Positions 5,705-29,676 of a DNA stretch of 64,000 nucleotides are shown here, one piece after another. This DNA comes from an uncultured Gammaproteobacteria bacterium. Its GTDB lineage: Bacteria > Patescibacteriota > Microgenomatia > JALYQM01. The position numbers and the translations under genes were made by a program. The stretch lies in assembly GCA_964403585.1 (NCBI GenBank), contig CAYOFQ010000002.1, positions 5,667 to 69,666 of the forward strand, read 5' to 3'. Position 1 is the first letter of the stretch. Each line of letters begins with the position of its first letter. Under the pieces are notes generated by a model that searched no databases, was not told the DNA's origin, and saw nothing but the letters and a program-made list of their open reading frames with translations.

Positions 5705-5744
5705 GACAATATCGTAACATATTAAAATAGAAAGTCAAGTTGCA

Positions 5745-5768: not shown

Positions 5769-5776
5769 GAATATCA

Positions 5777-6469: not shown

Positions 6470-6493
6470 TACTACACGTAAGAAAGGTCATAT

Positions 6494-6997
6494 ATGGAAG
6501 AAACATCCCCTATCGGTGAAATAAAAGGTACCCCAAAAGACGAACGAGGCGAACTACAGACCAATGGAGTATGGAAATTAACCGAAACGTCATCATTCGT
6601 AGAACCGGCAACCCCGGATAATCCGGATCATCGAACCCACAATGTAACAAAAACAACCTTCACCGTCGAAGGCCCAAATGATGAAGTATATAAAGTAACC
6701 AACACCAACGATCGTATCGATGTAGAAGGACCGGGGTACAACAGAACCGACGAAGTTATTACCAATACCGGTATCACTCGCAATAGCGAAGACTGGTTAC
6801 CATTCCAGATTGCCAACCAGCTCATTGATCGTGGTGACGCATTTAATCGAAGCAATCGGAATCAACTGGTAAGAACATTAGATACAATTGGCTCAAACTA
6901 CCAACAAGCAGTCGCAAAAGCAACTGAGAGCGGTGACCGCCTTGCTGCTATTCAAACCGCTGTTGATCAAGCTAAGGATTTTACCGACCAGCTATAA
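6494..6997 (+). CDS. Hypothetical protein
   Basis: 167-aa ORF, no recognised domain, followed by an intrinsic terminator. Confidence 0.5.
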   Translation: MEETSPIGEIKGTPKDERGELQTNGVWKLTETSSFVEPATPDNPDHRTHNVTKTTFTVEGPNDEVYKVTNTNDRIDVEGPGYNRTDEVITNTGITRNSEDWLPFQIANQLIDRGDAFNRSNRNQLVRTLDTIGSNYQQAVAKATESGDRLAAIQTAVDQAKDFTDQL

Positions 6998-7023
6998 AAA
7001 ATAAAATTCAAAGTGTAATAATA

Positions 7024-7054
7024 AAAAAGAGCCGTAATGGCTCTTTTTTATTTT
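7024..7054. terminator. Rho-independent terminator (bidirectional position between convergent genes)
   Basis: aaaaAGAGCCgtaatGGCTCTtttttatttt: a GC hairpin flanked by A-run and T-run. Confidence 0.65.
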
Positions 7055-7066
7055 ACGATAATTAGG

Positions 7067-7861
7067 TTAAAAAATCTTTAAGTAACAATATACCACAATC
7101 ACACTGGCTACCACCAGCAATCCCACCATCGCCAACGGAACCACCGCTTCAGCATTCCCTGTACGCAAATCTAAAAACAACGTCGCCACAATACTACTCC
7201 CCATCAATACCGAAAATACCAGCCACGGCGCGGCAAACACATACCCTAAGGTTTTCTTTCGCCATAACAAAACGCCTATTAGTATCATCGCCGACAACAC
7301 TAACGACAAATCTATAACCTGAATAGGATTCACCCATAACCCGGCCGTTGCAATACTTTTTGGTAGATCTCCAGAGATCAGCGCCGGAATAATCTCAGAC
7401 AACCACAGCAAGGCAAATAACCCTCCCGTAAGCATCAGCAAAACACTCGCTCCGCGGAATCTCTTACCCACAACACTTTTGGCCAAGATAGCCAGATCCT
7501 GACCCAATAACCCAACTATCACGCTGTACGCAGATAAACCCAAAATAGCTACATACACTAAGAATAAATAATTGAAATGCACAAAAAAGGCATAGATCAA
7601 AAACGCGTAAATAAAATACAGCAGCGTACCCAACCACACCAGCCAAGCCGCAACAGATTTCTTAGTGAGAAAATACGTACTAACAAGCAACACCGGCACC
7701 GCCAACAAATTCCCAATATCCTGCCCCACCGCCTGCATCGCCCAGTTCGCCGATTCCTGCGCATACGTAACCGGATCAAAAATACCCAGTAAACTCGACA
7801 GCAAAACTAACGCGCCAATAAGCACCGAACAAAAAATCCAAACTTTAGATACCGAATGCAT
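7067..7861 (-). CDS. Polytopic membrane protein (about 8 TM), unknown function
   Basis: 264 aa, highly hydrophobic with multiple predicted TM helices. Confidence 0.55.
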   Translation of the reverse strand: MHSVSKVWIFCSVLIGALVLLSSLLGIFDPVTYAQESANWAMQAVGQDIGNLLAVPVLLVSTYFLTKKSVAAWLVWLGTLLYFIYAFLIYAFFVHFNYLFLVYVAILGLSAYSVIVGLLGQDLAILAKSVVGKRFRGASVLLMLTGGLFALLWLSEIIPALISGDLPKSIATAGLWVNPIQVIDLSLVLSAMILIGVLLWRKKTLGYVFAAPWLVFSVLMGSSIVATLFLDLRTGNAEAVVPLAMVGLLVVASVIVVYCYLKIF

Positions 7862-7913
7862 ACCAACATGATAGCGTATTCTAAATTAAATACTGTGATC
7901 TGGATAAAATGAT

Positions 7914-8021
7914 TCATTGGGGAAACAGAGAGATAACCGAACCTATAAACATAAAAATGCCAAAAAACAACAGCGACAAGCCGCCAAGCTTTAACTTCTT
8001 ACTCCATACGTTCTTTTTCAT
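7914..8021 (-). CDS. Small membrane peptide (35 aa) MKKNVWSKKLKLGGLSLLFFGIFMFIGSVISLFPQ
   Basis: Not in ORF track (too short). Perfect SD AGGAGGTGA 5 nt before the ATG at 8021, one TM helix, stop TGA at 7914-7916. Confidence 0.35.
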   Translation of the reverse strand: MKKNVWSKKLKLGGLSLLFFGIFMFIGSVISLFPQ

Positions 8022-8035
8022 GATTTCACCTCCTG

Positions 8036-8072
8036 GTAGAGCGCAGATTGCGCTGCATAGCTACGCTCTACC
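8036..8072. terminator. Stem-loop (9-bp stem GGTAGAGCG/CGCTCTACC with a nested inner hairpin) downstream of lipoprotein gene
   Basis: Inverted repeat read directly. It lies 3' of the minus-strand gene 8098-8403. Confidence 0.4.
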
Positions 8073-8097
8073 ATAGTTCATTTGAATCCAGTTTAGG

Positions 8098-8403
8098 CTA
8101 GGGTGATGCTGCCGGGGGCGGCGCTGGCCGGTGAATGGTGCAATAGTCTTCCCCTTTCAGATTGTAGGTTGTCATGATCGGAACTGAAAAGTCACCTACT
8201 TTAATCGAACTAGTTTTCACTAACCACGTCGCCGGACAATCCTCCTCGCCTTCTCCCAAAATCCCTGAAAAGGTTTGTTCGTCTTGAGCGCACCCGTTCG
8301 GGTGGCAGTAGACTCCCTTCCAGGTCAGGGATGATCCATCACATGCGGCCAAAGCCAACGCAGCAAGAAGGCCCAAAAGTACCAGGGATAGACCCCGAAA
8401 CAT
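8098..8403 (-). CDS. Small Cys-rich lipoprotein (GC-rich, compositionally atypical)
   Basis: 101 aa. Signal peptide with lipobox LAAC and 6 Cys. Local GC is clearly higher than the flanks. Confidence 0.6.
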   Translation of the reverse strand: MFRGLSLVLLGLLAALALAACDGSSLTWKGVYCHPNGCAQDEQTFSGILGEGEEDCPATWLVKTSSIKVGDFSVPIMTTYNLKGEDYCTIHRPAPPPAASP

Positions 8404-8606
8404 CGCACGCTCCTGTGCTAAAAGGATCCAAAGTCTGCCCAGAAAATGAGCTAAAATGTTAACTCGCTTACTGAGCAGACCTTGAGTAATTATGAAGTGA
8501 ATTCCTGTGTTATCTCTCTGTTAAAGAACTTGCCGAATGGTGAATTCAGCCCGGTAATTATACTACAAAATTAACAAAAGTAAAATACTATAGGATATCA
8601 AAGAAG
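8404..8606 (-). promoter_or_regulatory. Promoter-leader module copy L4 (CCTATAGTA box, TATAAT, leader with TTTAACAGAGAG and AGCTCATTTT motifs)
   Basis: Minus strand reads atatCCTATAGTAttTTACTT-N-gtagTATAAT, then a ~140-nt leader containing cTTTAACAgAGAg. It is homologous to the leaders at 23905, 25181, 29160 and 18404. Confidence 0.45.
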
Positions 8607-8609
8607 AGG

Positions 8610-9038
8610 TTATGCCACATGCTTCTTCATATACTCATATGCCGACCTGATTATCGATTCCAAAACCGCCAAATCCACATCCGAAAGCTTATTAATATAC
8701 AAACATCCACCCATTCCGCTACCGCTCGTTTTATGTTTGCCTAATTTCTCCAAAGCCGGATTATCGTGATTCCCTTGCAACACATACAACGTTAAGTTCT
8801 GCTTCCGCGGCGAAAACCCCACCAACATCCAATCCCCTTCCTGAGCACTTCGTTCGGATTTATAATGATACTTTCCAAACCCTACAATACTCGTTCCCCA
8901 CATCACCGCTTTTTCTCCGGTAACTTTTTTGAACATTTCCAACAGCGCCAACGCATCTTCACGCTTCTGCTGCGGCTCAACGGAATTCAAAAACTCTTTT
9001 GGATCTTGATCGGTAATTTTCGTTTTAGGTTCGGCCAT
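8610..9038 (-). CDS. DUF1801 (YdhG-like) family protein
   Basis: 142 aa with DUF1801 core GKYHYKSERS...LGKHKTSGSGMGGCLYINKLSDVD. A paralog lies at 14774-15205. Confidence 0.6.
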   Translation of the reverse strand: MAEPKTKITDQDPKEFLNSVEPQQKREDALALLEMFKKVTGEKAVMWGTSIVGFGKYHYKSERSAQEGDWMLVGFSPRKQNLTLYVLQGNHDNPALEKLGKHKTSGSGMGGCLYINKLSDVDLAVLESIIRSAYEYMKKHVA

Positions 9039-9057
9039 AGGTTGATTATATCAAACC

Positions 9058-10053
9058 TTACGGAAACAAGGTTTCAAACGAAGGACTATGCTCGAGGATT
9101 TCTCGCAGAAAAATATTCTTGGCAAAACGGTCAACTATTCCGGCAGCCGTATCCGTCAGTTCATCAGGCAATCGTCGCATCGTTATGCGTTGGTACATCG
9201 GATGAATCAGCGCGAAACCGTATTCAACAGTTCTCACCGCCAAATTACTAAAACCCATTTCCCGGCATTTCGAACGCAACTGTGCTTTATGTTCACGTAC
9301 AAGCCACTTTGGATCCTCTGTCGGATGTATCGATTGCAGCGCGTTATAGTAGTTTGGTATAGCCAACCGACCATCCAATTCCGCCCCGTTAATATCATCA
9401 TCAATCTGAGCCAACATCGTTGTGTAATGCAACCCCACCAGCGCCCGGCGAGTCCGTGTCACATCGCTACCTGCATCGAAGAAAACTGAATATTTAGCCA
9501 CCATCTCTTCAAAATTTCGCGGCATCTGAGCAAAGTTAAAACCAACTTCTTCTAATACCTGCGGACTCAGTAAAGACAAACAAAACGCCTCATACATAGC
9601 CACATCACAATGGACATGTTGCAGCTGTTGCTCCGGTGTCAGTTCACCTTGGTAGGTTGACAGAAACAAACTATCCCGGGAAAAATGACCAAAAGCAACA
9701 TCAGCTTCTCCACACGGCACTGCCGCAAATTTTTCAAAATACCGTTTGTGCAAACGTTGAGACATCTCTACTAATGCATCTCGATGATCTGTAGCACCGA
9801 CAGCTTTACGCTCAGCCGGTCGGCCAACATCAATATAGTCATTCAAGGCCGTCAGAGCCACCAAATACGCATCCAAGCCGCGCACCCTCTCGGCGATAGT
9901 ACCCTGCAAATAATCGGGGAATAAACATTCCACTGCCGAAACAATCGTCGCCGTCGTTACGGGCAAAGTTAACCCAGGTTCTTTTCGCTTCTCAGCGGCC
10001 ACAACCCGTCCAACTTCAATAAAAGAACTCACACCTTCAGAGAAACTTGCCAT
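9058..10053 (-). CDS. Isoprenoid-synthase-fold protein (terpene synthase / prenyl-diphosphate synthase-like, degenerate Asp-rich motifs)
   Basis: The track ORF extends to 10149, but that would overlap the divergent P450 start. The internal ATG at 10053 (MASFSEGVSS) is preceded by TATAAT 9 nt upstream (leaderless). Asp-rich motifs LNDYIDVGRPAERK (~aa 70) and AQIDDDINGAELD (~aa 220) sit at FARM/SARM-like or DDxxD/NSE-like spacing. Confidence 0.35.
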   Translation of the reverse strand: MASFSEGVSSFIEVGRVVAAEKRKEPGLTLPVTTATIVSAVECLFPDYLQGTIAERVRGLDAYLVALTALNDYIDVGRPAERKAVGATDHRDALVEMSQRLHKRYFEKFAAVPCGEADVAFGHFSRDSLFLSTYQGELTPEQQLQHVHCDVAMYEAFCLSLLSPQVLEEVGFNFAQMPRNFEEMVAKYSVFFDAGSDVTRTRRALVGLHYTTMLAQIDDDINGAELDGRLAIPNYYNALQSIHPTEDPKWLVREHKAQLRSKCREMGFSNLAVRTVEYGFALIHPMYQRITMRRLPDELTDTAAGIVDRFAKNIFLREILEHSPSFETLFP

Positions 10054-10115
10054 ATCGCGAATTATACCATTACTAAGCAAAAAAGCATAAATATGATACA
10101 ATCCGTTCTTAATAT

Positions 10116-11567
10116 ATGAACGAATTAGTTCGGGAAATTGGATATGCACTCCACAGCAGGATAGCGGTGGAAACCCGCCGCGCCCTGGCGCCTAATCAAA
10201 CTCCGGGGCCTCGGAAACTTAATCCGCTACTCGGATGTTTACCGGAAGTCAGCACAGGACTTCTTGAATATATAGATACCGTCGCGCATCAGTTTCCTGA
10301 AATAGCGTTCTATCATGCCGGCGCTGCTATCTGTCAGGTTACCGATCCTGGGTTGGTGCGGCAAGTGTTGGCAGTGCAGCACGAAAAAACCCAGGCCATA
10401 GTTTTCCCGCGCACGGCCATGCGTTCCACCTTAGGCGAAGGAGTATTATTTAGCCAGGGCACCAAATGGCGCAACTCCCGCGAAGCAATGCAACCACAAT
10501 TTCATCACGGGAAACTGGAAAATTTCGCCGATATTGTCCACTCGGTATTGGATGAAACAGTCGACCAACTCAAATCATACCAAGAAACCGGCGCTACCTT
10601 TGACCTTAACAACGCCATGTCCGAAATGACTTTAAAAATCGTTCTGCGATCACTCTTTTGTCAGGACCTACCGCTGCAGGATTACCGTTCCATCATCGAC
10701 TTCACTATTAGATACAACGAGCTTTTTGTAGATACCCTCACTAAATCTCCTCTCTCACTTGTCAATCTGTTACTGGACAACAAATGGGACAAAAACGTCC
10801 GCAAGCTTCACGATATCGTCGAACAGGCAGATATCATTTTCGACCGGCTTATCGATCACCACCTCGAATATCCGCCCGGAACCTTTGACGACCTCTTATC
10901 ACTATTTATGAATATTCAATTTGAAGGACAACCAAACACACGAGAACAAGTCAAAAACGAAATCCGCACCTTCATACTCGCCGGGCACGACACCTCTGCG
11001 CGAGGTTTAACCTGGCTCTGGTACAACCTTTCTCAAAAACCGGAATGTATCGCCAAACTAACAGGTGAATTACAAGCCACCGGTAAAAACGCGCGCGAAT
11101 TAGGTCCGCATGATCTCAGAGAACTTCCGTACCACCGTGCCACCATTGAAGAAAGCCTGCGACTACACCCGCCTTCTTGGGTAAATTTACGCATGGCCAA
11201 AGAAAACCTGGCCCTAAAAAGTTCGAGCGGTAAGGATTATTTCGTCCCGCGGGGTACATACATTATTGTCAGTCCGTATGGCACCCACCGCAGCCCTGCG
11301 TATTGGGAAAATGCCGAACAATTCAATCCGGAAAGATTTCTTCTGCCGAATAGAAAAACAATCCACCCCGGCGCCTTCTTTCCGTTTGGCGGCGGTCCTC
11401 GTCATTGCATTGGCCAGGGCTTTGCTATGACGGAAATGCAGTTAGCAGTAGCACGACTTAATTCCGAATTTGCTATTCAAATAATTACCGGAGAAGTTGA
11501 ACCAATGGCCTCACTTGTGCTTCGAGCTAAAAACCCCATTATGGCTAAAGTAACACAAAAAGAATAA
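10116..11567 (+). CDS. Cytochrome P450 monooxygenase
   Basis: 483 aa. Heme-binding loop FPFGGGPRHCIGQGFA, I-helix AGHDTSA, ExxR motif ESLRLHPP and an N-terminal PGPRKLNPLLG. Confidence 0.9.
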   Translation: MNELVREIGYALHSRIAVETRRALAPNQTPGPRKLNPLLGCLPEVSTGLLEYIDTVAHQFPEIAFYHAGAAICQVTDPGLVRQVLAVQHEKTQAIVFPRTAMRSTLGEGVLFSQGTKWRNSREAMQPQFHHGKLENFADIVHSVLDETVDQLKSYQETGATFDLNNAMSEMTLKIVLRSLFCQDLPLQDYRSIIDFTIRYNELFVDTLTKSPLSLVNLLLDNKWDKNVRKLHDIVEQADIIFDRLIDHHLEYPPGTFDDLLSLFMNIQFEGQPNTREQVKNEIRTFILAGHDTSARGLTWLWYNLSQKPECIAKLTGELQATGKNARELGPHDLRELPYHRATIEESLRLHPPSWVNLRMAKENLALKSSSGKDYFVPRGTYIIVSPYGTHRSPAYWENAEQFNPERFLLPNRKTIHPGAFFPFGGGPRHCIGQGFAMTEMQLAVARLNSEFAIQIITGEVEPMASLVLRAKNPIMAKVTQKE

Positions 11568-11611
11568 CTCACCACTACTTAACTGGATTCTTCTTTGTTA
11601 TTATTAAATCG

Positions 11612-14203
11612 ATGCTTAAGCGACTGCTCACTTTTCTACTGCTTCTATCACTCTCGATATTTATTTTTCCGGGCAAAGTCCACGCGGCGTATTCCCTTGC
11701 TGGAAGCAACTCCTTCACCGGAACCAGCAGCGTCGCCATGCCAATTACAGATTTACAAATTAGTGGCACCGGTACCGAACCAATCAATGTAAAACTATTA
11801 GTTACCAGTGGAACACTTTCCATGTCTACCACCACCGGACTTACCTTCGATGGCAGCTCCAGCGGTTCTACAATCTATTTCAGCGGAACACTTACCAATA
11901 TCAATAACGCCTTAGCAACACTCACCTACACCAGAGCTTCAACCGGAACTGATACACTCGAAGTGTCACTGGTCCCGCGCGGTGAAGTTTTTTTTACAGA
12001 CAATAACCACTTATATAAATTTATCTCCGGAACCATCACCGCCAACAGTGCCCGTACCTCAGCCGCAGCACAAACCGCATACGGGGCCACCGGCTATCTT
12101 GCCACTATCACCTCCCAAGCCGAAAACGATTTCGTTGCAAACCGTCTCCAGGGTGATGGGTGGATCGGTGGCAGCGACGCCACTTCTGAAGGCACTTGGA
12201 AATGGATCACTGGACCTGAAACCGACACAACCTTCTGGTCTGGCGCATCAGGTGGAAGCACCGTAGGTGGCAATTACGCCAACTGGGCCTCCGGCGAACC
12301 AAATGACTGGGGTGGCAACGAAGACTGTATCCAGTTTTATATCACCAGCCGCAACTGGAACGATCTACCTTGCACTGGAAACACCCTTTCCGGGTATGTT
12401 GTCGAGTTTGGAGCACCGGGAGATCTACCCAGTGTCGTCGCCAAAAATATTTCTATCACTACCAGTAACGCACCAACCGTGAACACCTTCAGCCCTCTGG
12501 ATAACGCTACTAATATTTCCACCACCTCCAACCTTACATTGACGTTTAATCAAACTATCACTAAAGGTACGGGGAATATTCTCATTAAAAAAACTTCCGA
12601 CAACTCCACCGTTGAAACCATCGATGTCACCAGCTCGCAGGTTACCGGCCAAAGCACCAGCACTATTACTATCGACCCAAACACTACACTCGATGAAAAC
12701 ACCTCCTATTACATCACTATCCCAAATACCGCTTTTAAAAATGGCAGCAACGCGTTTTATACCGGCATCTCCACAACTACTGGCTGGAATTTTACCACCG
12801 GAGATTTCACTAACCCCGGCTTAAGCAGCATAACTGCCACATCAATTTCTAATTCCGGAGCAACTATCACCTGGGCGTCTACCGAGAGTTCGTCATCCCG
12901 GGTAACCTACGGACTCACGACATCATACGGCACTCAAACCTCCGAAACAGATACCTCTCCACGCGTCACATCTCATTCAGTTGCATTAACCGGTTTACTC
13001 GCCTGCACGACCTATCATTACACTGTCACATCACGCGATGCTTCCTCAAATAGCAGCACTTCCTCAGATAATTCATTTACTACCACCGGCTGTGAGGCTA
13101 GCCAAACTCCAGTCGACACCAACACCGAAACCATAACTACAACAACCGGCGGAACAACTACTCTTGAGGAAAACAACAACGAACTGACCGTCCAGGCACC
13201 GGGCAATTTCACTACTGCCGCATCGTCGGTTGTAATCCAAATCAAAGCAGTCGAAAGTTCACCGGTATTAAGTGCAACCGGTAAACCAACCGAAGTCCCC
13301 TTACCGGTCGGCAATATCGTCTTCGATGTTAAAGCCATTATTAATGGAACAACCGTGTTAGATTCATTTGATCAACCGGTCACGATCACCTACCACTATA
13401 CCGATGCAGATATCGTTGGCATCAAAGAAGAAACGCTCAGACTGTATCATTACCACAATAACACCTGGGAAGAACTCGACTCCTGTTATGTTAACCAGAC
13501 TACCAACACCATTTCCTGCACCACCGACAGTTTCTCAATTTTCGCGCTGTTTGGGAAATCCATCAACAGCCCAACCGCTCAAGTTGCTACAACCAACAAC
13601 GGTCCGGCCACATGCGGCTCATCCGTTCCGTCTACGCCCACACTATTTCAAATTGACGCAGCTCAAACCCAAGCCAAGGTATACCTCTCACCCGTTAGTA
13701 ATCCGGTTACCAACTACTTTATTTCCTACGGATACTCACCAAACGAAGAACGCTTTGGCACCTTCACCAACCTAAACCAGTCTACGGGAGTTCTTTCATA
13801 CACCGTCAACTTTTTAAGTGCCAACACCACCTACTATTTCAAACTACGCGCCTACAACGACTGCATGCCGGGCAATTGGAGTAACGAGATGAAGATCACC
13901 ACCCATAAACGCTTATCCGGCAGCACCGTGTACTATAAAAACTCACCCACACACACGCTCTCGGTTTTCCCCAGCCCGCTCAAAAACATTCCCTCCGTTC
14001 TCATATCGCAAAACAACACCTCCCGCATTCTCGGAGCTACAACCGGCACTACCTGTGAATATACTGTCCAATCGGGTGATTCACTCTGGACCATTGCATC
14101 CCAAAAACTCGGTGCCGGCTGGAAATACCAATCGATCATGGAGCAAAACAATTTAAATTCTACTTTCTTGAAGACAGGCTCCGTCTTAAGAATTGGCTGT
14201 TAA
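11612..14203 (+). CDS. Large secreted surface protein with C-type lectin, Ig-like/FN3 and C-terminal LysM domains
   Basis: 863 aa with signal peptide MLKRLLTFLLLLSLSIFIFPGKVHA. CTLD core is WIGGSD...EGTWKW...GEPND...EDC. The FN3-like segment is ATITWASTESSSSRVTYG...YHYTVTSRD. LysM is YTVQSGDSLWTIASQKLG...GSVLRI. Confidence 0.75.
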   Translation: MLKRLLTFLLLLSLSIFIFPGKVHAAYSLAGSNSFTGTSSVAMPITDLQISGTGTEPINVKLLVTSGTLSMSTTTGLTFDGSSSGSTIYFSGTLTNINNALATLTYTRASTGTDTLEVSLVPRGEVFFTDNNHLYKFISGTITANSARTSAAAQTAYGATGYLATITSQAENDFVANRLQGDGWIGGSDATSEGTWKWITGPETDTTFWSGASGGSTVGGNYANWASGEPNDWGGNEDCIQFYITSRNWNDLPCTGNTLSGYVVEFGAPGDLPSVVAKNISITTSNAPTVNTFSPLDNATNISTTSNLTLTFNQTITKGTGNILIKKTSDNSTVETIDVTSSQVTGQSTSTITIDPNTTLDENTSYYITIPNTAFKNGSNAFYTGISTTTGWNFTTGDFTNPGLSSITATSISNSGATITWASTESSSSRVTYGLTTSYGTQTSETDTSPRVTSHSVALTGLLACTTYHYTVTSRDASSNSSTSSDNSFTTTGCEASQTPVDTNTETITTTTGGTTTLEENNNELTVQAPGNFTTAASSVVIQIKAVESSPVLSATGKPTEVPLPVGNIVFDVKAIINGTTVLDSFDQPVTITYHYTDADIVGIKEETLRLYHYHNNTWEELDSCYVNQTTNTISCTTDSFSIFALFGKSINSPTAQVATTNNGPATCGSSVPSTPTLFQIDAAQTQAKVYLSPVSNPVTNYFISYGYSPNEERFGTFTNLNQSTGVLSYTVNFLSANTTYYFKLRAYNDCMPGNWSNEMKITTHKRLSGSTVYYKNSPTHTLSVFPSPLKNIPSVLISQNNTSRILGATTGTTCEYTVQSGDSLWTIASQKLGAGWKYQSIMEQNNLNSTFLKTGSVLRIGC

Positions 14204-14755
14204 TACTTTAAAAGTAATGCTTGTTCTCATCGCAGTAGTTTGTTCTACCTTAATTCTCTCGAGCCGTATCTTATCCGCATCGAGGTTATCTAACAATCGA
14301 AGTCCTTTGCCAATCAAAACCGGCATAATATCTACCGACAATTCATCACATAATCCCGCATTGAGACATTGTCGGATCGTATCCGGCCCACCGATTACCT
14401 GAACCATTTTTTCTCCGGCAGCTTTCCTTGCTTTTGCCACAGCACTTTCAATACCATCCGAAACAAACGTTACGCTCAGTCGACCATTTCCTTGAGGATA
14501 CTTTTCAGGAGGAGTATGCGTTAAAATAAACAGCGGAACCTGAAATTCATAATCATCATTAATCCATTCAAACGGATCGGCCATTTCATATACATGCCTG
14601 CCCATTACCACTGCACCGGTGTTTGCAATCATCTCTTGGAATGAATGAACAGTATGCAACTCTTCAAAGTCAGTATACAGTCTATCTACACTGCCGTTAC
14701 TGTCCTGAACAAATCCGTCCAGTGACATCGTCATACCTGCAACTACTTTACTCAT
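14186..14755 (-). CDS. Dihydrofolate reductase family protein (RibD_C domain)
   Basis: 189 aa. MSLDGFV...VMGRHVYE...PLFILTHT...VIGGPDTIRQCLNAGLCDEL..VLIGKGLRL. Confidence 0.7.
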   Translation of the reverse strand: MSKVVAGMTMSLDGFVQDSNGSVDRLYTDFEELHTVHSFQEMIANTGAVVMGRHVYEMADPFEWINDDYEFQVPLFILTHTPPEKYPQGNGRLSVTFVSDGIESAVAKARKAAGEKMVQVIGGPDTIRQCLNAGLCDELSVDIMPVLIGKGLRLLDNLDADKIRLERIKVEQTTAMRTSITFKVLTANS

Positions 14756-14773
14756 AGAGGAATTATACCAAAG

Positions 14774-15205
14774 TTAGGATTTCCACAATATGCGGTCAAT
14801 CGGACCTTTTTGGGACTGTAACTTTATATTCTCATACGACTGCCGCACAATTTGTTCAAGTACTGTCATATCAACATCGCTAAGTCGTTTAATATAAATA
14901 CAATATCCGGTAAGAGTGTGCTTCCCCAACTTCGCCAGTAACACCGAATAACGTGCAGTCCCATCCATCAGGTAAATAGTAATCTTCCCTTTGCGTGGAT
15001 AAAAACCAATCACCAGAGCATCACCTTCCCGGCCACTGTCATATTTGTAATGATACGTATCGAAACCGAGAGTTCCTTCATTCCATTTTTGCGGGATATG
15101 TCCACTTATTCGCTGCATCATCGCCAGTAATTTATGACTGTCTTCAATAGTTTGCGCATCGGTAAGTGAATCAATATAATCTGCAACTGAGCTGTCAGAT
15201 TTCAT
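14774..15205 (-). CDS. DUF1801 family protein (paralog of 8610-9038)
   Basis: 143 aa. GFDTYHYKYDSGREGDALVIGFYPRK...LGKHTLTGYCIYIKRLSDVD. Confidence 0.6.
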   Translation of the reverse strand: MKSDSSVADYIDSLTDAQTIEDSHKLLAMMQRISGHIPQKWNEGTLGFDTYHYKYDSGREGDALVIGFYPRKGKITIYLMDGTARYSVLLAKLGKHTLTGYCIYIKRLSDVDMTVLEQIVRQSYENIKLQSQKGPIDRILWKS

Positions 15206-15395
15206 GTATTAGTTTTCCTTTCGTGTCATACTTCATCCACGGTTTCGCCAATTTTCCCGCCACAAAATATCCCGTCTTTAGTTTAGTTGCATCCCTGCGA
15301 TACCATTTCCAATACCCTTCACGTTTTCCATCTTTAAGCTTTCCTATTGCATGAATTGATCCATCTGAATAATACGTAACACTGGAAATCTTCAT
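15195..15395 (-). CDS. MORN-repeat (YwqK-like) small protein
   Basis: 66 aa. YYSDGSIHAIGKLKDGKREGYWKWY is a MORN repeat variant. Start and stop overlap the neighbours, so it is part of the operon. Confidence 0.5.
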   Translation of the reverse strand: MKISSVTYYSDGSIHAIGKLKDGKREGYWKWYRRDATKLKTGYFVAGKLAKPWMKYDTKGKLIHEI

Positions 15396-16000
15396 AAGAC
15401 ATTGTATCTGATATGTGTCACAAAGCTGGTTCCACTCACTTCAATTGGTTCAAGTTTAAGATTAGGCACTCCTTCGAAAAGTCGTGACCCTGTTCCGATC
15501 GTTACCGGCACAATATGTAACCACAGTTCATCAATAAATCCGCCGGCCAAATATTGATTTATCGTGCTCGCGCCTCCCATAATCTTAACATTCCTATTCC
15601 CGACAGCCTCTTTAGCCTGTGTGAGAGCCGACTCAATACCATCAGTTACAAAGAAAAATGTCGTTCCACCTTCCATATTAATCGGTGCACGCGCTTTATG
15701 AGAAAGCACAAACACCGGAGCATGGTACGGAGGATCGTCACCCCACCACCCCTTCCATTCAGGATTATCACGTCTGTCACGAGGCCCAAACATGTTACTC
15801 CCCATAATAAACGCACCCGCATCAAGAATAGCGTCAATTTCTTTGGTATGTTTATGCTTTTCGGGTTCGGCAAACATCCAGCGATCAAGTAAATCGGCGT
15901 CAAAATTATCTCCAAACGGGTGTTCAAAACTCTGGTTCACACCGGCGCCAAACCCGTCCAAAAAAATAGTCAACCCTGCAGTAACTTTTGTTTTATTCAT
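15392..16000 (-). CDS. Dihydrofolate reductase family protein (RibD_C domain), second paralog
   Basis: The track ORF runs to 16051. The likely start is MNKTKV at 16000, which overlaps the upstream stop by ATGA. Motifs FLDGFGAG..., VFVLSHK..., IMGGASTINQYLAGGFIDELWLHIVPVTIGTGSRLF. Confidence 0.7.
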   Translation of the reverse strand: MNKTKVTAGLTIFLDGFGAGVNQSFEHPFGDNFDADLLDRWMFAEPEKHKHTKEIDAILDAGAFIMGSNMFGPRDRRDNPEWKGWWGDDPPYHAPVFVLSHKARAPINMEGGTTFFFVTDGIESALTQAKEAVGNRNVKIMGGASTINQYLAGGFIDELWLHIVPVTIGTGSRLFEGVPNLKLEPIEVSGTSFVTHIRYNVL

Positions 16001-16440
16001 AATTCTTGAGCTAGCCCAATGAGAATTCCTTCGGGTCCACGGATATAACAAAGCCGATACGAATGCTCATATTGGACCACTTCACCAACTAGCTGTGCAC
16101 CTTTCTTCTGAAGTCTTGTTAAAGTATCGTCGATATCCTGTACAGTAAACATAACCCGCAAGTAACCAAGCGCATTTACTGGAGCATTCCGATGATCGGC
16201 AATAACAGACGGAGCAATAAAACGCGAAAGCTCCAGGCGACTATGCCCGTCCGGGGTAACCATCATCGCAATCTCTACTCGCTGATTACCCAAACCCGTC
16301 ACTCTTCCGGCCCATTCACCTTCTACCATACCGCGTCCTTCCAGTGTCAGACCGAGTTCGGTAAAAAAGGCAATCGCCTCATCGAGAGACTCCACAACAA
16401 TACCGACGTTATCCATCCGTTTCAAGTTAGATGCGCTCAT
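15997..16440 (-). CDS. VOC/glyoxalase family protein
   Basis: 147 aa. MDNVGIVVESLDEAIAFFTELG...GPEGILIGLAQ is glyoxalase/bleomycin-resistance-like. Confidence 0.65.
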   Translation of the reverse strand: MSASNLKRMDNVGIVVESLDEAIAFFTELGLTLEGRGMVEGEWAGRVTGLGNQRVEIAMMVTPDGHSRLELSRFIAPSVIADHRNAPVNALGYLRVMFTVQDIDDTLTRLQKKGAQLVGEVVQYEHSYRLCYIRGPEGILIGLAQEL

Positions 16441-16811
16441 CCTTCTACCTCTACCTGAAATCCGCCATACGCCATTCGCTTCATATCTACAGGCATCTCA
16501 AAATCTTTAAAATCCATCTGTCCCATTTCCTCCATAACCTTAGCATTCACTTCATCACGATGTTCTTTTGAGTTAAAAACAATAAACGAAAACCAGACGT
16601 TCTCATCACCACTGGCACCCATAACTTCCGGAAAAGCACGTGACTTCTCATCACCCATTTCCTGAGGAGCAAGTTCACTGCCACGGCATTCATAGTACTC
16701 CAGCGCACCATGCTTCATCCACGACTCCTTACCCATTTCAGCCATTTTCTTGTAGTCCTCCTCTTTACCCTTAGGAACAACCAGTACAAATCCGTCTACA
16801 TATTTTGCCAT
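16437..16811 (-). CDS. DUF1428 family protein
   Basis: 124 aa. MAKYVDGFVLVVPKGK...LEYYECRGSEL. Confidence 0.55.
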   Translation of the reverse strand: MAKYVDGFVLVVPKGKEEDYKKMAEMGKESWMKHGALEYYECRGSELAPQEMGDEKSRAFPEVMGASGDENVWFSFIVFNSKEHRDEVNAKVMEEMGQMDFKDFEMPVDMKRMAYGGFQVEVEG

Positions 16812-16845
16812 ATAAAATTCCTTCCTTTTACTAATAAAATATATT

Positions 16846-17331
16846 TTATTCTGAAACCGGACTCCAATTTTTAATATTCTTCATCAATTCCCTACACTCA
16901 TCTCGCAACACTCCGCCAGCAACCGAAATACTTCTGCCATCAAAGGTAACTAATCGCTTACCATGCTCCTCGGCATGATAATCTCTCAACTCATACGGAT
17001 TCGGCTGAACATCTTCTTTGTAAGCACCAAAAACAATCCGGGACACCCCGGACCATCCTGCACAACCAAGACACATCGAACATGATTCTAACGTTGAATA
17101 GAGAGTACACCCGGATAAGTCTAAACTACCAAGTTTTTGGCATGCATTGCGTAAACACTCAGTCTCACCATGAGCAGAGGGATCTTTCTTAGGCCAAACT
17201 AAACTCCATCCGGTAGAAATAACGTCGTCACCCTTTACAAGAATAGCTCCAATCGGCGCACCTCCCGCAGCCTGTGACTTCTTCGCTTCCTCAATAGCTA
17301 ATCTAACATAGTATTCATACTTGTCATTCAT
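16846..17331 (-). CDS. Cytidine/deoxycytidylate-type nucleoside deaminase (zinc-binding)
   Basis: 161 aa. HGETECL and ESCSMC zinc ligands (HxE...PCxxC). TATAAT 7 nt before the ATG (leaderless). Confidence 0.75.
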   Translation of the reverse strand: MNDKYEYYVRLAIEEAKKSQAAGGAPIGAILVKGDDVISTGWSLVWPKKDPSAHGETECLRNACQKLGSLDLSGCTLYSTLESCSMCLGCAGWSGVSRIVFGAYKEDVQPNPYELRDYHAEEHGKRLVTFDGRSISVAGGVLRDECRELMKNIKNWSPVSE

Positions 17332-17372
17332 AATGTAATTATATCGTAGTTGGAAGATTTGAGATAATACTA

Positions 17373-17400
17373 AAAAAGGGCTTCATAAAGCCCTTAAAAA
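17373..17400. terminator. Bidirectional intrinsic terminator aaaaAAGGGCTTcataAAGCCCTTaaaaa
   Basis: 8-bp GC-containing stem with A-run and T-run on both sides. It abuts the direct repeat at 17403. Confidence 0.6.
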
Positions 17401-17402
17401 TC

Positions 17403-17418
17403 TGCTCCCCGACTGGGA
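17403..17418. repeat. Direct repeat of the tRNA-Asn 3' end (TGCTCCCCGACTGGGA vs TGCTCCCCGACTAGGA at 18403-18418), att-like
   Basis: 15 of 16 positions are identical and in the same orientation, 1 kb downstream of the tRNA 3' end. Confidence 0.55.
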
Positions 17419-17455
17419 CGTTATTCGGACTGAGATGTACTTGAGAAATTATTTT

Positions 17456-17519
17456 TTATAGTTTGTTTCGGCTTCTATTTGCCTCATCAGATAGAGATAA
17501 CTCTATGACAAACTACAAC
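17456..17519 (-). ncRNA. Hammerhead ribozyme, type III (helices I and II closed, III open)
   Basis: Minus-strand RNA GUAGUUUG-UC|AUAGAG-UUAU-CUCUAU-CUGAUGA-GGC-AAAUAGAA-GCC-GAAAC-AAACUAU. All invariant core nucleotides are present (CUGAUGA, GAAA, GUC cleavage triplet). Helix I is 6 bp with a UUAU loop, helix II 3 bp, helix III at least 8 bp. Predicted cleavage is after the C complementary to plus 17507. Confidence 0.75.
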
Positions 17520-17713
17520 ACGAGGAAATTATGAAACTATACTTAAAGCAAAAAACTAATTCTTCGACTTTCGTCAAAGCAAGTCTTATGCAATGAGCAT
17601 ATGTTCATCGCTTCCTCGTACTGTAGTTTGTATAAAACCCTTCGATTGTTTCGCGCAATGCGCAAGTACAATTCTTTAGTCGGGAGGGCCAAAGACAAAA
17701 CTTTCAGATGCGA

Positions 17714-18094
17714 CTACTCCGCCCAGGGATCGAAATCAGTTTCGGTAAGTTCTACCACTCGCGGATGCTTCTGCAGCTCGGCAAGTTCGACCTCCGAAAC
17801 GTTTTCGAAGAAACATCCTGCATAAGAGACAACCATTTGGTCATCCCTCATCTGGTTGAGCTCAACAATCGCGTCGGGATAGAGCGGCTGCTCCATTCCA
17901 CCGTGATTTATGAACCACTGCTTCTTACCTTCGGCTACAGCCTCGGCGGGAGTTAACGATCGCGGCACGATGATCCAGCCGTGGCCACAAATCAAGGCTC
18001 CAGCATTGAGCGGGAACTCGTCTTCGAATCGCGAGATCACACAACCCCAATAATTTTTGCCGGCGGTCTGATTGGCGATGTTCGATGCGTTCAT
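17714..18094 (-). CDS. Hypothetical protein (GC-rich, compositionally atypical), cargo of the tRNA-associated mini-island
   Basis: 126 aa, no signal peptide, GC about 50% versus about 35% for the flanks. It is preceded by promoter-leader module L5. Confidence 0.5.
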   Translation of the reverse strand: MNASNIANQTAGKNYWGCVISRFEDEFPLNAGALICGHGWIIVPRSLTPAEAVAEGKKQWFINHGGMEQPLYPDAIVELNQMRDDQMVVSYAGCFFENVSEVELAELQKHPRVVELTETDFDPWAE

Positions 18095-18404
18095 TATTTT
18101 TCCCTTTCTTAGCTAAGACTGCTTGCAGCGAAAGTGCTACCGCTTTGTCTTAAAAGACCCTTAATACATTCGAATTTAATCAAATGCATAAAGGGTCTTT
18201 CATTACTAAGAAAGAAGATAAACTACATATTTTGAGGAAGATATAAGCTAAAAAGCTAATCCTCGTGTTGTAAAAGAACACTTATGAGCTCAATTGAGCT
18301 CAATCTTAATTACATTCATAAGTTCAATTTGAGCTTAGAGTATAACTAAGATATGTTTATTATATCACAAAATAGGGAAAAAGTAAATTACTATAGGTTA
18401 TTTG
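18095..18404 (-). promoter_or_regulatory. Promoter-leader module copy L5 (CCTATAGTA box, TATAAT, perfect GAGCTCAATTGAGCTC palindrome, TTTTACAACACGAGG box, structured 3' leader)
   Basis: Minus strand reads aaCCTATAGTAatTTACTT...gaTATAAT, then a leader with the 16-bp perfect palindrome at 18286-18301 and two strong hairpins before the RBS. It begins 1 nt after the tRNA 3' end. Confidence 0.45.
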
Positions 18405-18681
18405 CTCCCCGACTAGGATTCGAACCTAGAACCTTCTCGTTACATGAACCCCACAAGTTTCCTAGTGGCATGGACTATCTCATCACCATACTTAAAAAGC
18501 ACAGGTGTCAGGCGTATAGTCTCTGAACCTTCAATACGCAAGAAGCGTAAAGCTTGGCTGCGGATTACCATAATCTTTCGATCGTAGGCTTCCCGACAGT
18601 TAACCCAATTTTCACTTCAGGATTTCTCCAGAAGGCTGCATCAATCTACAGCGAGCCGCTCTACCGTTGAGCTATCAGGGA
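18405..18681 (-). tRNA. tRNA-Asn(GUU) interrupted by a group I intron (exons 18648-18681 and 18405-18442)
   Basis: 5' half UCCCUGA-UA-GCUCAACGGUAGAGC-G-GCUCG-CUGU. 3' half UAACGAGA-AGGUU-CUAGGUUCGAAUCCUAG-UCGGGGA-G. The acceptor stems pair (UCCCUGA/UCGGGGA). Spliced anticodon loop is CUGUUAA, class I variable loop, discriminator G73, no encoded CCA. Confidence 0.65.
18443..18647 (-). ncRNA. Group I intron (IC3-like, Azoarcus/cyanobacterial tRNA-intron type), 205 nt, no ORF
   Basis: 5' exon ends in U. IGS GCAG pairs with the exon CUGU. P2 is CUUC-U-GGA-GAAA-UCC-U-GAAG. The core shows extended identity to the Azoarcus pre-tRNA-Ile intron as recalled from memory (UAUGGUAAUCCGCAGCCAAGCUU...UUGAAGGUUCAGAGACUAUACGCC...CACCU). 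The intron ends with omega-G (CAUG|UAACGAG). Confidence 0.65.
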
Positions 18682-18684: not shown

Positions 18685-19401
18685 TTAACTTTTACCGTGC
18701 TTTAAGCACGATGCATCCTGAATTCTATCACCAAAAACAGCAGAAATCCACCCCATAATTTGACGCTGTATATCTGAGCAACTGAACCTAATAGAAAACA
18801 CTCCATAAGAGTGTATATTTTTTCTAATTTTCTGTGAATCAATCTTATTTTTTACTATATAAGTTTTATGGAATTTAGCCTTAGAAATACCCGTTAGTTG
18901 AGACCAAAATTCCCTTGCAGCTTCTATATCTAAACCTTCATGAATCCAAAGTGCACCTCTAAATCTATCTTCAGGGACCTTCGCAAATTGCCGTAACCAG
19001 CCCATCATAAACTCGATTATCCGAGGATCAGAATTTGCGATACCTCCCTTCCCATCGGCTTTATCACCTTCACCCAAATAAATAGCGATACCTGCCAACA
19101 ACCTGTCCCTTTCAGAAATCGCACCTAGTTCATTTTTTGCATGTAAAAATATTTGCTGAGTTTTATTAATTCTGTAGGAACGTTTATTTTCAGCTGCAGC
19201 AAGAGAACCCTTTTTTTGACCGTTAATTTTTGTAGTAATAAGCCGGTTTCTCTGTTCATCAGTTAATACTATATCCCTACACCAACGACTTAATGTGTCT
19301 TTAGAAACTTTAACCTGTAATAAAATCTCATTATAAGAAAGACCTTTACTTCTTAATTTCTGAGCAATAATTCGTTCTTCCAATTTCCCTGAATAACCCA
19401 T
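18685..19401 (-). CDS. HTH-domain protein, possible LAGLIDADG-like endonuclease fold (uncertain)
   Basis: 238 aa. N-terminal HTH (RSKGLSYNEILLQVKVSKDTLSRWCRDI). Segment ERDRLLAGIAIYLGEGDKADGKG loosely resembles a LAGLIDADG motif. It ends 4 nt before the intron-containing tRNA. Confidence 0.3.
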   Translation of the reverse strand: MGYSGKLEERIIAQKLRSKGLSYNEILLQVKVSKDTLSRWCRDIVLTDEQRNRLITTKINGQKKGSLAAAENKRSYRINKTQQIFLHAKNELGAISERDRLLAGIAIYLGEGDKADGKGGIANSDPRIIEFMMGWLRQFAKVPEDRFRGALWIHEGLDIEAAREFWSQLTGISKAKFHKTYIVKNKIDSQKIRKNIHSYGVFSIRFSCSDIQRQIMGWISAVFGDRIQDASCLKHGKS

Positions 19402-23866: not shown

Positions 23867-23904
23867 ACCCCAATATTACCAGAAAACAGTTAACACAAAA
23901 ATAT

Positions 23905-24268
23905 CCTATAGTATTTGACTATTGGATATTTAGGAGTATAATAGATAGTGCCTCCAAAAGGCTATTTACCTCAACTGAGGTAGACAAGCTCAAAAGAGGC
24001 GCGAGCTCAAGCTCAACTTGAGTTCACAGTACTTTAACAAGAGAACATGCAAAATAAGCTAAAACACTTCCCCAACCCGGTAACCTACAGGATTTTGAGC
24101 TCAATTGAGCTAGATTGAACTCAGTATCCTGTAGTTTGCTCGGGTAATCAAGGAGGTGTAAACACCTACCCGAAAGTGACAAATCGTCACCGCAAATTGC
24201 AATCGAGGTCGTATGCCTCAGGATGACTTATTCAGTAGTAGCCGTTTTAAAACAACAAGGACAACACA
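23905..24268 (+). promoter_or_regulatory. Promoter-leader module copy L1 (CCTATAGTA-TTGACT-N16-TATAAT, about 320-nt leader)
   Basis: Box 23905-23913, -35 at 23915-23920, -10 at 23937-23942. The leader has hairpin GCCTccaaaAGGC, stem CUCAAGcucaaCUUGAG, the TTTAACAAGAGAAC box (~24013-24026) and GAGCTCAATTGAGCTa (24097-24112). RBS AAGGA before the ATG. Confidence 0.5.
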
Positions 24269-25006: not shown

Positions 25007-25180
25007 CAGCTCCTCGCAGGAGAAACCAAATGGAGTTTACTAAGCCCTTGAGTCTTGAACTCATTCGTAGCGTATTTCCCTATTTAGCCTCAACCTGTAC
25101 ATGTTCTCTTGTCCCATTTTAACCTCAAATAAGCTCAAATCTTATCCAAGCTCAATTTTAGCCTAAATATAACGAAATAA

Positions 25181-25671
25181 TAACCTATAGTATTGACATA
25201 TAGGACAAAATATGGTAATATACAAGATGCCTCACCGAGGCTACCAGTTCAAATAGAACCGTCTAGACTCAGTTGAGGCTAGGAAGAGAGCGCAAGCTCA
25301 ACTTCCGCACCTTAACAAGAGTGCTTAGCAACAAGTCAGAGTTACACGCTCGGCTAGCACAAATGAGCTCACGCTCATCCGCTATCCAATGGGCAACTAC
25401 CTCTGAAATAGCAACATTTTTTGAAACCAAATCCTCTTTCTCCCATTACAGCGGAATTCTGGACCTCATAATTGAGATTCGGTATTCCGCTGCAATGAAG
25501 ATTGAGTAAACTCCTTAGTTTGGAGAGCTCCTTGAACGCAAGTTCAAGAACTTCGTTATAGATCCAGCGGCCCGAGACCCTTCTCAACGACGCAAGTCGA
25601 AAAGATATAGGTCATATTTCCGCGCGGACTTTTCGACAAGTTTACAAGCAACCGAACAAGGAGCAAACACA
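25181..25671 (+). promoter_or_regulatory. Promoter-leader module copy L2 (CCTATAGTA-TTGACA-N17-TGgTAATAT, about 445-nt leader)
   Basis: -35 at 25193-25198 and extended -10 at 25213-25221. The leader has hairpin GCCTCaccGAGGC, GAGCGCAAGCTCAACTT and the CCTTAACAAGAGTGC box (~25300-25314). Confidence 0.5.
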
Positions 25672-28896: not shown

Positions 28897-29159
28897 AGGC
28901 CGGTGAATTATAACATTTACTATAAGATAAGTAAATGATCTACATATAACCTGACGAAAAAGAGATATTAATCGGACAAAGGGTTGACAATTCACTAAAT
29001 GTATAGTAGAGTTTATAGGTCATAATACCCTAACTCAAGGGCCGCTTCACTACTGCTGCTCCAGCCTTAACAAGGCGAATCAGCAATTTTGGTAATACCC
29101 GAATAAAATACGAAACTAATAAATCCGAAGTGAAGACAGGAAAACGCCTTTTGATAAGA

Positions 29160-29676
29160 CCTATAGTGTTGACTATTATGACAAAATGTGGTATTATGAT
29201 GCTACCTTAAATGAGCTTAGGCTCAAAATGAGTTAAAAAGCGCTTTTAAGGTAAGTACATTTACAAGAGAGCAATAGCAAAAGTCTACAGTAGTCTGGAT
29301 GCCTACGGTACCGGTTTACCCGCCCCGTTAAGCAATATCCTCCCGCCTGTAGCATTCCGATACTAAACAATTCCCTTCACTACCTACGAACAGTGGAATT
29401 CTGCGAATAAGTAATCTTGTTCCCGGGATTCCACTGCTCAGTAGGAAAAATAGTGAAAGGAGGATGTTCCTACAACGACCACGTACGTCGTGAGCAGTTT
29501 ACATAGCAGGCTGGTCAAGTCCTATCGACATGGGAATGTCCAATCCGACAAGGTAGAGTGTGGCAAGTATCCACATCTATCAGCGTTGGTGCGGAATATA
29601 CCATGAAAGCAGGAGGAGATCTTCTGTCCGCCCGTCGTATCTCATATCGGCCGATAGAACTGAAGGATGTGCAACC
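29160..29676 (+). promoter_or_regulatory. Promoter-leader module copy L3 (CCTATAGTG-TTGACT-N17-TGgTATTAT, about 470-nt leader)
   Basis: -35 at 29169-29174 and extended -10 at 29189-29197. The leader has AAAAGCGCUUUU, the CATTTACAAGAGAGC box (~29245-29260), a 9-bp inverted repeat CAGTGGAAT/ATTCCACTG (29392-29440) and RBS GAAGGA. Confidence 0.5.

Follow-up and report, generated by a model that had tools for sequence, protein, structure and literature searches.

A 984-bp segment at the 3' end of a tRNA-Asn gene was studied in a 64,000-nt stretch of contig CAYOFQ010000002.1 (the window; coordinates given without a locus name are those of the window). On balance, we consider that this segment (17419-18402), which carries one gene and lies between two direct copies of the tRNA 3' end, is probably acquired DNA that came in by site-specific recombination at the tRNA-Asn 3' end, that is, an islet similar to the cis-mobilizable elements (CIMEs), present as a remnant or as a hitchhiker. 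The tRNA gene and the islet features described below are all on the minus strand. The closest named relatives of the window proteins are found in Candidatus Daviesbacteria, Roizmanbacteria and Woesebacteria (Patescibacteria, or candidate phyla radiation, of the Microgenomates type). The arrangement was taken as real because three independent public assemblies carry it, at 100% identity.

A preliminary description of this DNA had reported that the last 16 nt of the tRNA recur at 17403-17418 with one mismatch, and this was borne out. The 16-mer TGCTCCCCGACTAGGA (18403-18418) and its counterpart TGCTCCCCGACTGGGA (17403-17418) are identical at 15 of 16 positions, in direct orientation and 1000 bp apart from start to start, and no further match to the 16-mer occurs in the window at up to three mismatches. 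The longest uninterrupted identity between the copies is AGTCGGGGAGCA (12 nt); with two mismatches allowed the repeat grows to 19 nt, TCCyAGTCGGGGAGCArAT, and the two copies are then a proximal, attL-like TCCTAGTCGGGGAGCAAAT at 18400-18418 and a distal, attR-like TCCCAGTCGGGGAGCAGAT at 17400-17418, the latter having the look of a displaced tRNA 3' end. The chance expectation for a match of at least 15/16, calculated from base composition, is 4.6e-4 per 64-kb strand and 3.6e-5 within 5 kb, and shuffled sequences gave 0.001 per strand. The proximal copy covers the 3' strand of the T stem, the 3' strand of the acceptor stem, the discriminator and CA, and runs 3 nt past the end of the tRNA. Both copies contain GAGCA, as do the tRNAs of two relatives (loci L008 and L216), most relatives having GAGCCA; as far as the sequence goes, this shared variant argues for common descent of the two copies. 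The distal copy could also extend, in degenerate form, into a T-arm-like stretch (CTCAGTCCGAAT compared with CTAGGTTCGAAT, with a 5-nt insertion); this extension is suggestive, but it was set aside, being not significant alone or by ordinary alignment scoring.

The distal copy is directly followed, 7 nt past its end, by an intrinsic terminator (17376-17395; 8-bp stem, then TTTTTT), and the present end of the tRNA-Asn is without one. This terminator, at 17395-17376 in the direction of reading, is probably the original terminator of the tRNA-Asn. It had been described as bidirectional, which does not hold, the T-run being found on the minus strand only. The islet has an intact tRNA gene at one end and, at the far end, a tRNA 3'-end fragment in direct orientation (17403-17418).

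The tRNA-Asn(GUU) is missed by ARAGORN because a group I intron splits the gene. Its 5' exon of 34 nt (18648-18681) ends in ...GCUGU (G34 U35) and is identical to positions 286-319 of locus L004 (contig CAZHTP010000006.1), a relative that has an intron-less tRNA-Asn. It is followed by an intron of 205 nt (18443-18647) at anticodon-loop position 35/36 and by a 3' exon of 38 nt that reaches discriminator G73 (18405-18442), after which only CA (18404-18403) is encoded, the CCA being incomplete. Joined together, the exons are base-for-base identical to the L004 tRNA-Asn, and the 5' exon pairs with 18411-18405 in an acceptor stem of 7 bp. The intron boundaries, GCUGU|A...CAUG|UAACGAG, were set by comparison with L004 and place a U at the end of the 5' exon and a G at the end of the intron. 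Rfam RF00028 matched the intron over the full model with 79.7 bits, compared with a gathering score of 50, and related group I introns are present in the same tRNA of L008, L212 and L215. Group I introns at position 35/36 of Patescibacteria tRNA-Asn were published in 2026, with splicing shown in vitro and with the observation that standard tools miss them (Nakagawa et al. 2026, PMC13011429). The window intron is an instance of this published class and hence already known: tRNA, site and phylum are the same, there is no intron endonuclease, standard finders miss it, and we see no essential difference. The same paper is silent on integrases, direct repeats and islands at this tRNA.

The tRNA-Asn 3' end is an integration and recombination hot spot in the relatives of the window. 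The DNA downstream of the tRNA is different in each of the window, L004, L008, L212, L215 and L216, and at several loci it begins with a gene for a large serine recombinase (LSR) that lies opposite the tRNA and whose final codons and stop fall within the 3' end of the tRNA (L004 345-1850; L008 11489-12980; L215 2331-3896; also L130, L145, L160, L173, L174 and L186). When metagenomes were scanned with the 3' 30-mer of the tRNA-Asn, 120 loci were collected, 88 of them with usable flank, and an LSR gene ending inside the tRNA-Asn 3' end was present at 7 of these 88 (L130, L145, L160, L174 and L186 among them). Two end frames of the LSR genes occur at this tRNA, ...WLPD* (TGGCTCCCCGACTAG) and ...GSPTRIRT*. 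Direct repeats of the tRNA 3' end were found downstream at eight or nine metagenomic loci, and three of them bound cassettes that have no integrase: L137, where the repeat is 41 nt long and the 1522 bp include a dipeptidase-like gene; L118, with 2355 bp and a repeat of 45 nt; and L098, a hicAB-like pair closed by a 14-nt repeat.

Individual relatives illustrate the variety of what is found at this site. L008, from a metagenome-assembled genome of Patescibacteria with an rpoD 67% identical to that of the window, keeps the order dnaG-rpoD-tRNA-Asn, has a tRNA intron scoring 107 bits and a tRNA that ends in GAGCA, and carries a split LSR gene on the opposite strand, the last codons and stop of which (..LLRD*) lie within the tRNA 3' end. 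L214/L215 (contig Ga0451708_0000571 for L214) contain a 239-aa homolog of the gene upstream of the window tRNA, an intron-bearing tRNA-Asn, a 521-aa LSR ending in the T arm, and phage-like genes. The two Daviesbacteria loci L212 and L216 have the same upstream gene and intron-bearing tRNA, followed by Fic and hydrolase genes in one and by a BrnT/CopG toxin-antitoxin pair in the other. In L004, whose deaminase is 92% identical to that of the window, the tRNA-Asn is followed by an LSR gene ending in ..WLPD*, then by about 12.6 kb that include a deaminase block, and then by a degenerate copy of the junction, GGGAGTCAATCGCTAATTAAT, beside a second, split LSR gene; L004 is a tandem array.

Several observations were made beside these. 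In L004, a deaminase/HD/RibD_C/MazG/GNAT block (360-13036) lies between the tRNA-proximal LSR and the degenerate second attachment (att) site with its decayed LSR, and looks like the cargo of an integrative element. In the window, the 92%-identical deaminase lies just beyond the distal repeat, and an older island may extend over 14186-17400. Mini-elements of about 311-360 bp were also seen at tRNA-Asn (L155 390-780; L116 8067-8450; L132 484-875; L200 1900-2290; L190 175-610; L098 1282-1790), in each of which a complete tRNA is followed by a GIY-YIG open reading frame (ORF) of at most about 96 aa where intact, with its C-terminal codons entering a second tRNA copy that is altered and lacks its 5' part (spanning D-arm to 3' end); these look like insertions of the homing-endonuclease type that duplicate part of the tRNA. 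The Daviesbacteria locus L212 (6696-6840) has, ahead of its intron-bearing tRNA, two copies of a stretch made up of the upstream flank and the first ~18 nt of the tRNA-Asn gene (AATATTCCTCGATAGCTC), spaced by about 125 nt, and the Rfam match to the intron begins inside the duplicated AATATTCCTCGATAGCTC stretch. In L183, whose contig has an intron-less tRNA-Asn about 800 bp away, positions 997-1140 are 76% identical to the 5' exon and the 5' part of the intron of the window; this may be a truncated intron-bearing copy, and Rfam reports no group I intron there. None of the 120 metagenomic loci has an intron in its tRNA-Asn, and apparent large insertions in some of these tRNAs were recognised as artefacts of tandem tRNA genes with similar 5' ends.

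The islet itself has a simple anatomy, and the preliminary description was right in placing a GC-rich 126-aa ORF and a cassette-type promoter between the repeats. The promoter (18359-18397) begins 5 nt beyond the tRNA-proximal repeat copy with the CCTATAGTA motif, followed by a -35 element TTTACT, a spacer of 17 nt and a TG-extended -10 element TATAAT (10 of 12 matches plus TG in our scan); the stretch from -35 to -10, TTTACT-17-TGnTATAAT, occupies 18387-18359, with the CCTATAGT motif upstream. Next comes an AT-rich leader of about 264 nt (18095-18358) that contains the palindrome GAGCTCAATTGAGCTC and a Shine-Dalgarno-like AAGGGAAAAA, and then the ORF (17714-18094). The GC content is 52.8% in the ORF, 30% in the leader, 37% in the 3' region and 43.1% in the whole window.

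The 126-aa ORF is a near-orphan. Among 5.8e9 proteins it matches only itself, and the 1.84e9 cluster representatives include a single distant relative, P0122 (117 aa, 34% identity, E = 2e-9), which ends a gene block with a PIF1-type helicase, an HTH_17 protein and an AAA_24 ATPase and faces an Rv2525c-like glycoside hydrolase (lysin), a phage-like context. Neither Pfam nor NCBIfam gave a match, tblastn against INPHARED gave none, and an AlphaFold model made from the two-sequence alignment was too poor for a fold search (mean predicted local distance difference test score 59.5). The cargo is foreign in composition and ancestry to the extent that the GC content of the ORF deviates and its sole homolog lies in a phage-like contig. 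Together, the near-orphan ORF, the phage-like context of its homolog and the hammerhead motif described below fit a phage-derived origin.

The promoter of the islet is one of five in the window in which CCTATAGT stands, invariant, directly 5' of the -35 element: near 8594 (-; promoter ~8560-8600), 18397 (-; 18359-18397), 23905 (+; 23895-23945), 25184 (+; 25175-25225) and 29160 (+; 29150-29200). Each drives a relatively GC-rich ORF (53-64% GC) behind a leader with GAGCTCAA-type motifs, and the ORFs of four of the five have signal-peptide-like N-termini, so the set looks like a regulon or a group of acquired genes for secreted proteins. It had been proposed that this family of promoter-leader cassettes is linked to integration into tRNA genes, with a search for direct repeats around the other members as a check. 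The proposal failed this check: the other four cassettes (near 8594, 23891, 25170 and 29150) have no flanking direct repeats of at least 9 nt except their own promoter motif, and none of them adjoins a tRNA 3' end. No recombination site of the integron kind is shared at the boundaries of the family, and the common promoter-leader has the look of a regulatory type of the host rather than of a mobility signature.

Between the ORF and the distal repeat, the 3' region contains a complete type III hammerhead motif (17456-17518), which ends 37 nt before the repeat. The core is CUGAUGA / GAAA with the triplet GUC, cleavage is predicted after C17507 (GUC|A), and the core departs from the consensus at no position; the stems measure 6 bp (I), 3 bp (II) and 10-11 bp (III), the first two being closed by loops and the third open. 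Rfam RF00008 (Hammerhead_3) matched over the full model with 33.6 bits, below the gathering score of 48.5, with E = 4e-6 for the 116 nt searched, or about 2e-3 when scaled to the whole window, and the match was not reported in wider scans. A structural descriptor for the hammerhead matched the window only here and matched neither 100 shuffled sequences nor 1.9 Mb of other, unrelated loci. Folded in isolation, the 67 nt take the three-way junction of a hammerhead as their structure of minimum energy (z = -3.9). No homologs were available for covariation. Judging by its sequence, the motif is a candidate ribozyme that may be active.

A long imperfect hairpin with an outer stem of about 20 bp lies just upstream (17509-17631; inverted repeat 17508-17527 and 17612-17631), and the 346-nt 3' region folds with z = -6.6. 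The 3' arm of this hairpin doubles as the 5' strand of hammerhead stem III, so the two folds are mutually exclusive, and such exclusivity could, in this model, act as a gate on cleavage. The hairpin also includes an internal terminator-like stem (17579-17562) upstream of the hammerhead. Because of this stem and of the competing hairpin, both the activity of the candidate ribozyme and its location in the 3' untranslated region of the mRNA are uncertain; of the earlier statement that a hammerhead occupies this region, the motif was recovered in full and its placement in the transcript is doubtful. Hammerheads in bacteria are reportedly often found near integrases, in prophages and flanking single genes (PMC3088659). 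The window motif is like these prophage hammerheads (PMC3088659, RF00008) in its complete core and three helices, its position beside a single small gene and its proximity to an att-type boundary. It differs from them in its score below the gathering threshold and in that a stronger hairpin upstream ties up the 5' strand of stem III; moreover, with a minimal 6-bp stem I closed by a 4-nt loop and a 3-bp stem II, the usual loop-loop tertiary contacts are doubtful.

In the integration reading, the incoming DNA would have carried a copy of the last 16-19 nt of the tRNA. This element-borne copy would now complete the tRNA-Asn at 18400-18418, and the original tRNA 3' end would have been displaced 1 kb downstream to 17400-17418, where it would still stand ahead of the terminator of the tRNA. 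On either side of their common core the copies differ (T/C to the left, A/G to the right), as they would if the attP and attB arms differ. The crossover would lie in the acceptor or 3'-end part of the tRNA because the repeat excludes the T-loop, a placement compatible with an LSR as well as with a tyrosine integrase of the 3'-end class. The recombinase would have been supplied from elsewhere, presumably by an LSR of the prophage-like elements that use this site in the lineage, the segment itself encoding none. The segment would then be the leftover of a larger phage-derived element or a small passenger of such an integrase, apparently fixed in the population. Its single gene would be read from the host-type promoter, and transcripts that pass the internal hairpin could be cut by the hammerhead before the terminator. 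The evidence is divided as to whether a larger phage-derived element decayed or a small passenger was captured: the clean left edge speaks slightly for capture, the single, fixed, identical context for a remnant.

Several results weigh against integration, and the most direct concern the products expected of it. An empty site would join the tRNA T-loop directly to ...AGTCGGGGAGCAGATTTTTAAGGGC, with a predicted junction ...GGTTCGAATCCTAGTCGGGGAGCAGATTTTTAAGGGCTTTATG, and a circular or excised form would read ...CCGAATAACG-TCCyAGTCGGGGAGCA-AATAACCTATAG.... No empty site was found, the other contigs with the locus being 100% identical to the window and L004, L008, L212, L215 and L216 sharing no distal flank, nor was a circular junction found. 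The proposal to look for an empty site in relatives could therefore be followed only so far, as no relative shares both flanks. The deaminase was of no use as a downstream anchor, its neighbours being different in every relative, and rpoD was too conserved, 78 of the 80 loci found with it being from unrelated phyla and only L008 being useful. The integration reading is supported but unproven because no empty site was found; of the attL/attR footprint originally put forward, the repeat beyond chance, its position at the tRNA 3' end, the terminator and the hot spot stand in its favour.

Further points on the same side concern the recombinase and the source of the DNA. That the segment has no integrase had been noted before and was confirmed, the 126-aa ORF being its only gene and tblastn with 10 LSR queries returning nothing. 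The same search, together with tests of 20 ORFs for integrase domains, found no integrase or LSR remnant in the rest of the 64-kb window, so that the suggested search for tyrosine or serine integrases elsewhere came back empty within this range. No LSR gene overlaps the tRNA 3' end at attL in the window, where a plus-strand frame ending in TAG (18414-18416) is open for only 9 codons. In the LSR elements of the relatives, the available flanks hold no clean 16-nt distal repeat (none in L008, L215 or L130), the second att of L004 keeps only about 8 nt of tRNA sequence and the tail of the LSR gene, and formation of a 16-nt repeat by the local LSRs is hypothetical. The promoter is of the same type as at four host loci away from tRNA genes, which is odd for freshly imported DNA, and the left edge, with the promoter 5 nt past the tRNA, is suspiciously clean and rather tidy for something left by random deletion. 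Neither IMG/VR nor INPHARED yielded a parent element; the IMG/VR search for a parent element or attP used two junction patterns, the alignment of the 126-aa ORF, two LSR proteins and a tRNA 14-mer and gave nothing usable. A candidate attP with RWLPD* in L249 was discarded, there being no LSR adjoining, and a profile of six LSRs intended for a wider viral scan was abandoned as the alignment was too divergent.

These results leave room for other explanations. Had no recombination taken place, the 15/16 match would be due to chance or to an RNA function of the 3' part of the cassette transcript, where the 16-mer might for instance imitate the acceptor end of a tRNA. The repeat is short, and when the 3' region is folded the distal copy can adopt a small local hairpin (CCC-AGUC-GGG), but the chance expectation is only about 4e-5 within 5 kb and no 5' acceptor-strand partner lies nearby, so that no minihelix would form; moreover, the match to the tRNA 3' terminus, the shared GAGCA and the terminator that follows would be left unexplained. 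We regard this as very improbable. The att scar may instead be real and the gene within it not imported: the distal 16-mer would stem from an older element, later deleted or imprecisely excised, or from island accretion, the promoter and ORF would be a resident gene of the CCTATAGT regulon, and the deaminase block would perhaps belong to the same old island. Such a history is suggested by the sharing of the promoter type with the four host loci that lie away from tRNAs and have no repeats, by the L004 deaminase, 92% identical, inside an LSR element at the tRNA-Asn, which implies that window genes past the distal repeat may be old cargo, and by the tandem and decayed arrays that are typical at such sites. 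It appears rather unlikely, however, given that the only relative of the ORF is in a phage-like contig, that the hammerhead motif is typical of prophage contexts, and that DNA between a regenerated tRNA and a displaced fragment is imported by definition, unless rearranged later.

The islet could also be an active minimal cassette, a self-contained 1-kb unit made of a promoter, a gene, an RNA-processing signal and an att core, moved in trans by a tRNA-Asn-specific recombinase from the genome or from a phage. Its boundaries are clean, with the promoter and the hammerhead close to the two repeat copies, no truncated genes or LSR remnants lie inside, other integrase-less cassettes with tRNA-Asn repeats exist (L137, L118 and L098), and cis-mobilizable units are known (PMC5704250, PMC3146451). 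Against this, the cassette occurs in one context only among 5.8e9 proteins and the Logan, ENA, JGI and NCBI contigs, and in none in IMG/VR or INPHARED; that context does not vary among the three assemblies, neither an empty nor an alternative site is seen, the ORF is a near-orphan, the 64-kb window has no recombinase, the other integrase-less cassettes share no repeat-adjacent motifs with the islet, and the other four promoter-leader cassettes are without repeats. We hold an active cassette to be unlikely. A broader version would make the intron-bearing tRNA-Asn 3' end of Microgenomates a cassette-capture site, somewhat like an integron, where single-gene units are exchanged in trans by tRNA-Asn-specific LSRs of prophages; the unit here would consist of promoter, gene, hammerhead processing signal and 16-nt att core, and L137, L118 and L098 would be further members. 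This is a speculative extension that we find quite doubtful. Integration at the tRNA-Asn 3' end, with the islet as remnant or hitchhiker, is the explanation that we retain.

The remaining genes of the locus and of the window can be described briefly. In the order of the minus strand, the locus consists of dnaG, rpoD, a MazG-like gene, a 233-aa gene (on the opposite strand), the gene for a 238-aa helix-turn-helix (HTH) protein, the tRNA-Asn, the islet and a nucleoside deaminase gene, beyond which lie small accessory genes (DUF1428, glyoxalase, RibD_C and DUF1801). The 238-aa protein (18685-19401, minus strand) has an N-terminal HTH and no Pfam family, and its stop codon is 4 nt from the tRNA-Asn. 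In the window, as in each of the three relatives examined (L212 6001-6696; L215 1329-2048; L216 6001-6690), a member of its family (~231 aa) stands directly 5' of a tRNA-Asn that bears the intron. The protein belongs to a conserved Microgenomates family and is a resident neighbour, not a mobile gene, a reading that we adopt because the family is found upstream of the tRNA-Asn in the relatives too. The idea that this ORF is a free-standing LAGLIDADG endonuclease or a transposase was dropped, as Pfam, NCBIfam and PDB searches support only a weak N-terminal HTH. Elsewhere in the window, a tmRNA gene at 55019-55455 (minus strand) is somewhat long, with 437 nt compared with a model of 374 positions (91 bits), and type I restriction-modification genes occupy 2157-5704 (minus strand), where a 389-aa S subunit (Methylase_S) is accompanied by a 597-aa ORF that, by eye, may be the methylase subunit.

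Patescibacteria have tiny genomes and little is known of how they gain genes. In this context, the tRNA-Asn 3' end is a recurrent landing site both for LSR elements and for small inserts without an integrase. Because the intron-split gene escapes standard tRNA finders, this hot spot will also escape any island search that relies on annotated tRNA genes. To our knowledge, few hammerhead ribozymes have been reported in the Patescibacteria lineage, to which the islet adds a candidate. The locus is a concrete and testable entry point for the study of mobile DNA in the phylum.

Among the closest known systems are the islands identified by the Islander approach, the ends of which are marked by a regenerated target gene and a displaced 3' fragment (PMC4383910). 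The window locus resembles them in having an intact tRNA at one end, a direct 3' fragment at the other, foreign-looking cargo and a synteny breakpoint in relatives; it differs in that no integrase lies inside, that the insert is of 984 bp with one gene, that the repeat is of 16-19 nt without the T-loop, and that the tRNA is split by an intron. A second parallel is given by the ssrA islands of Dehalococcoides, which have 20-bp repeats of the gene 3' end, form tandem arrays and have a serine recombinase gene that overlaps attL, and among which units without integrase have been proposed to be cis-mobilizable (PMC3146451). The tRNA-Asn loci share with these islands and their recombinase DsiB the short 3'-end repeat, the tandem arrays, a recombinase gene that reads into the target at attL, as in L004, L008, L215, L130, L145, L160, L174 and L186, and units without an integration module. 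By contrast, the target in the window is tRNA-Asn, the host belongs to Patescibacteria, the unit is far smaller (the cargo of the vcr island alone is of ~7 kbp) and no recombinase is seen in the window.

The islet is best classed as CIME-like, CIMEs being defined as elements that keep their att sites and have lost the integration module (PMC5704250). Like them, it has att-like ends, no recombination module and a position at a tRNA 3' end, and it is plausibly a product of decay and accretion. The CIMEs of that work derive from decayed integrative and conjugative or integrative and mobilizable elements and are linked to conjugation, whereas the helpers of the islet, if any, would by analogy be LSR elements of prophage-like type, and its att sites are putative. 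With these differences, the islet is an ordinary kind of object, an att-bounded remnant.

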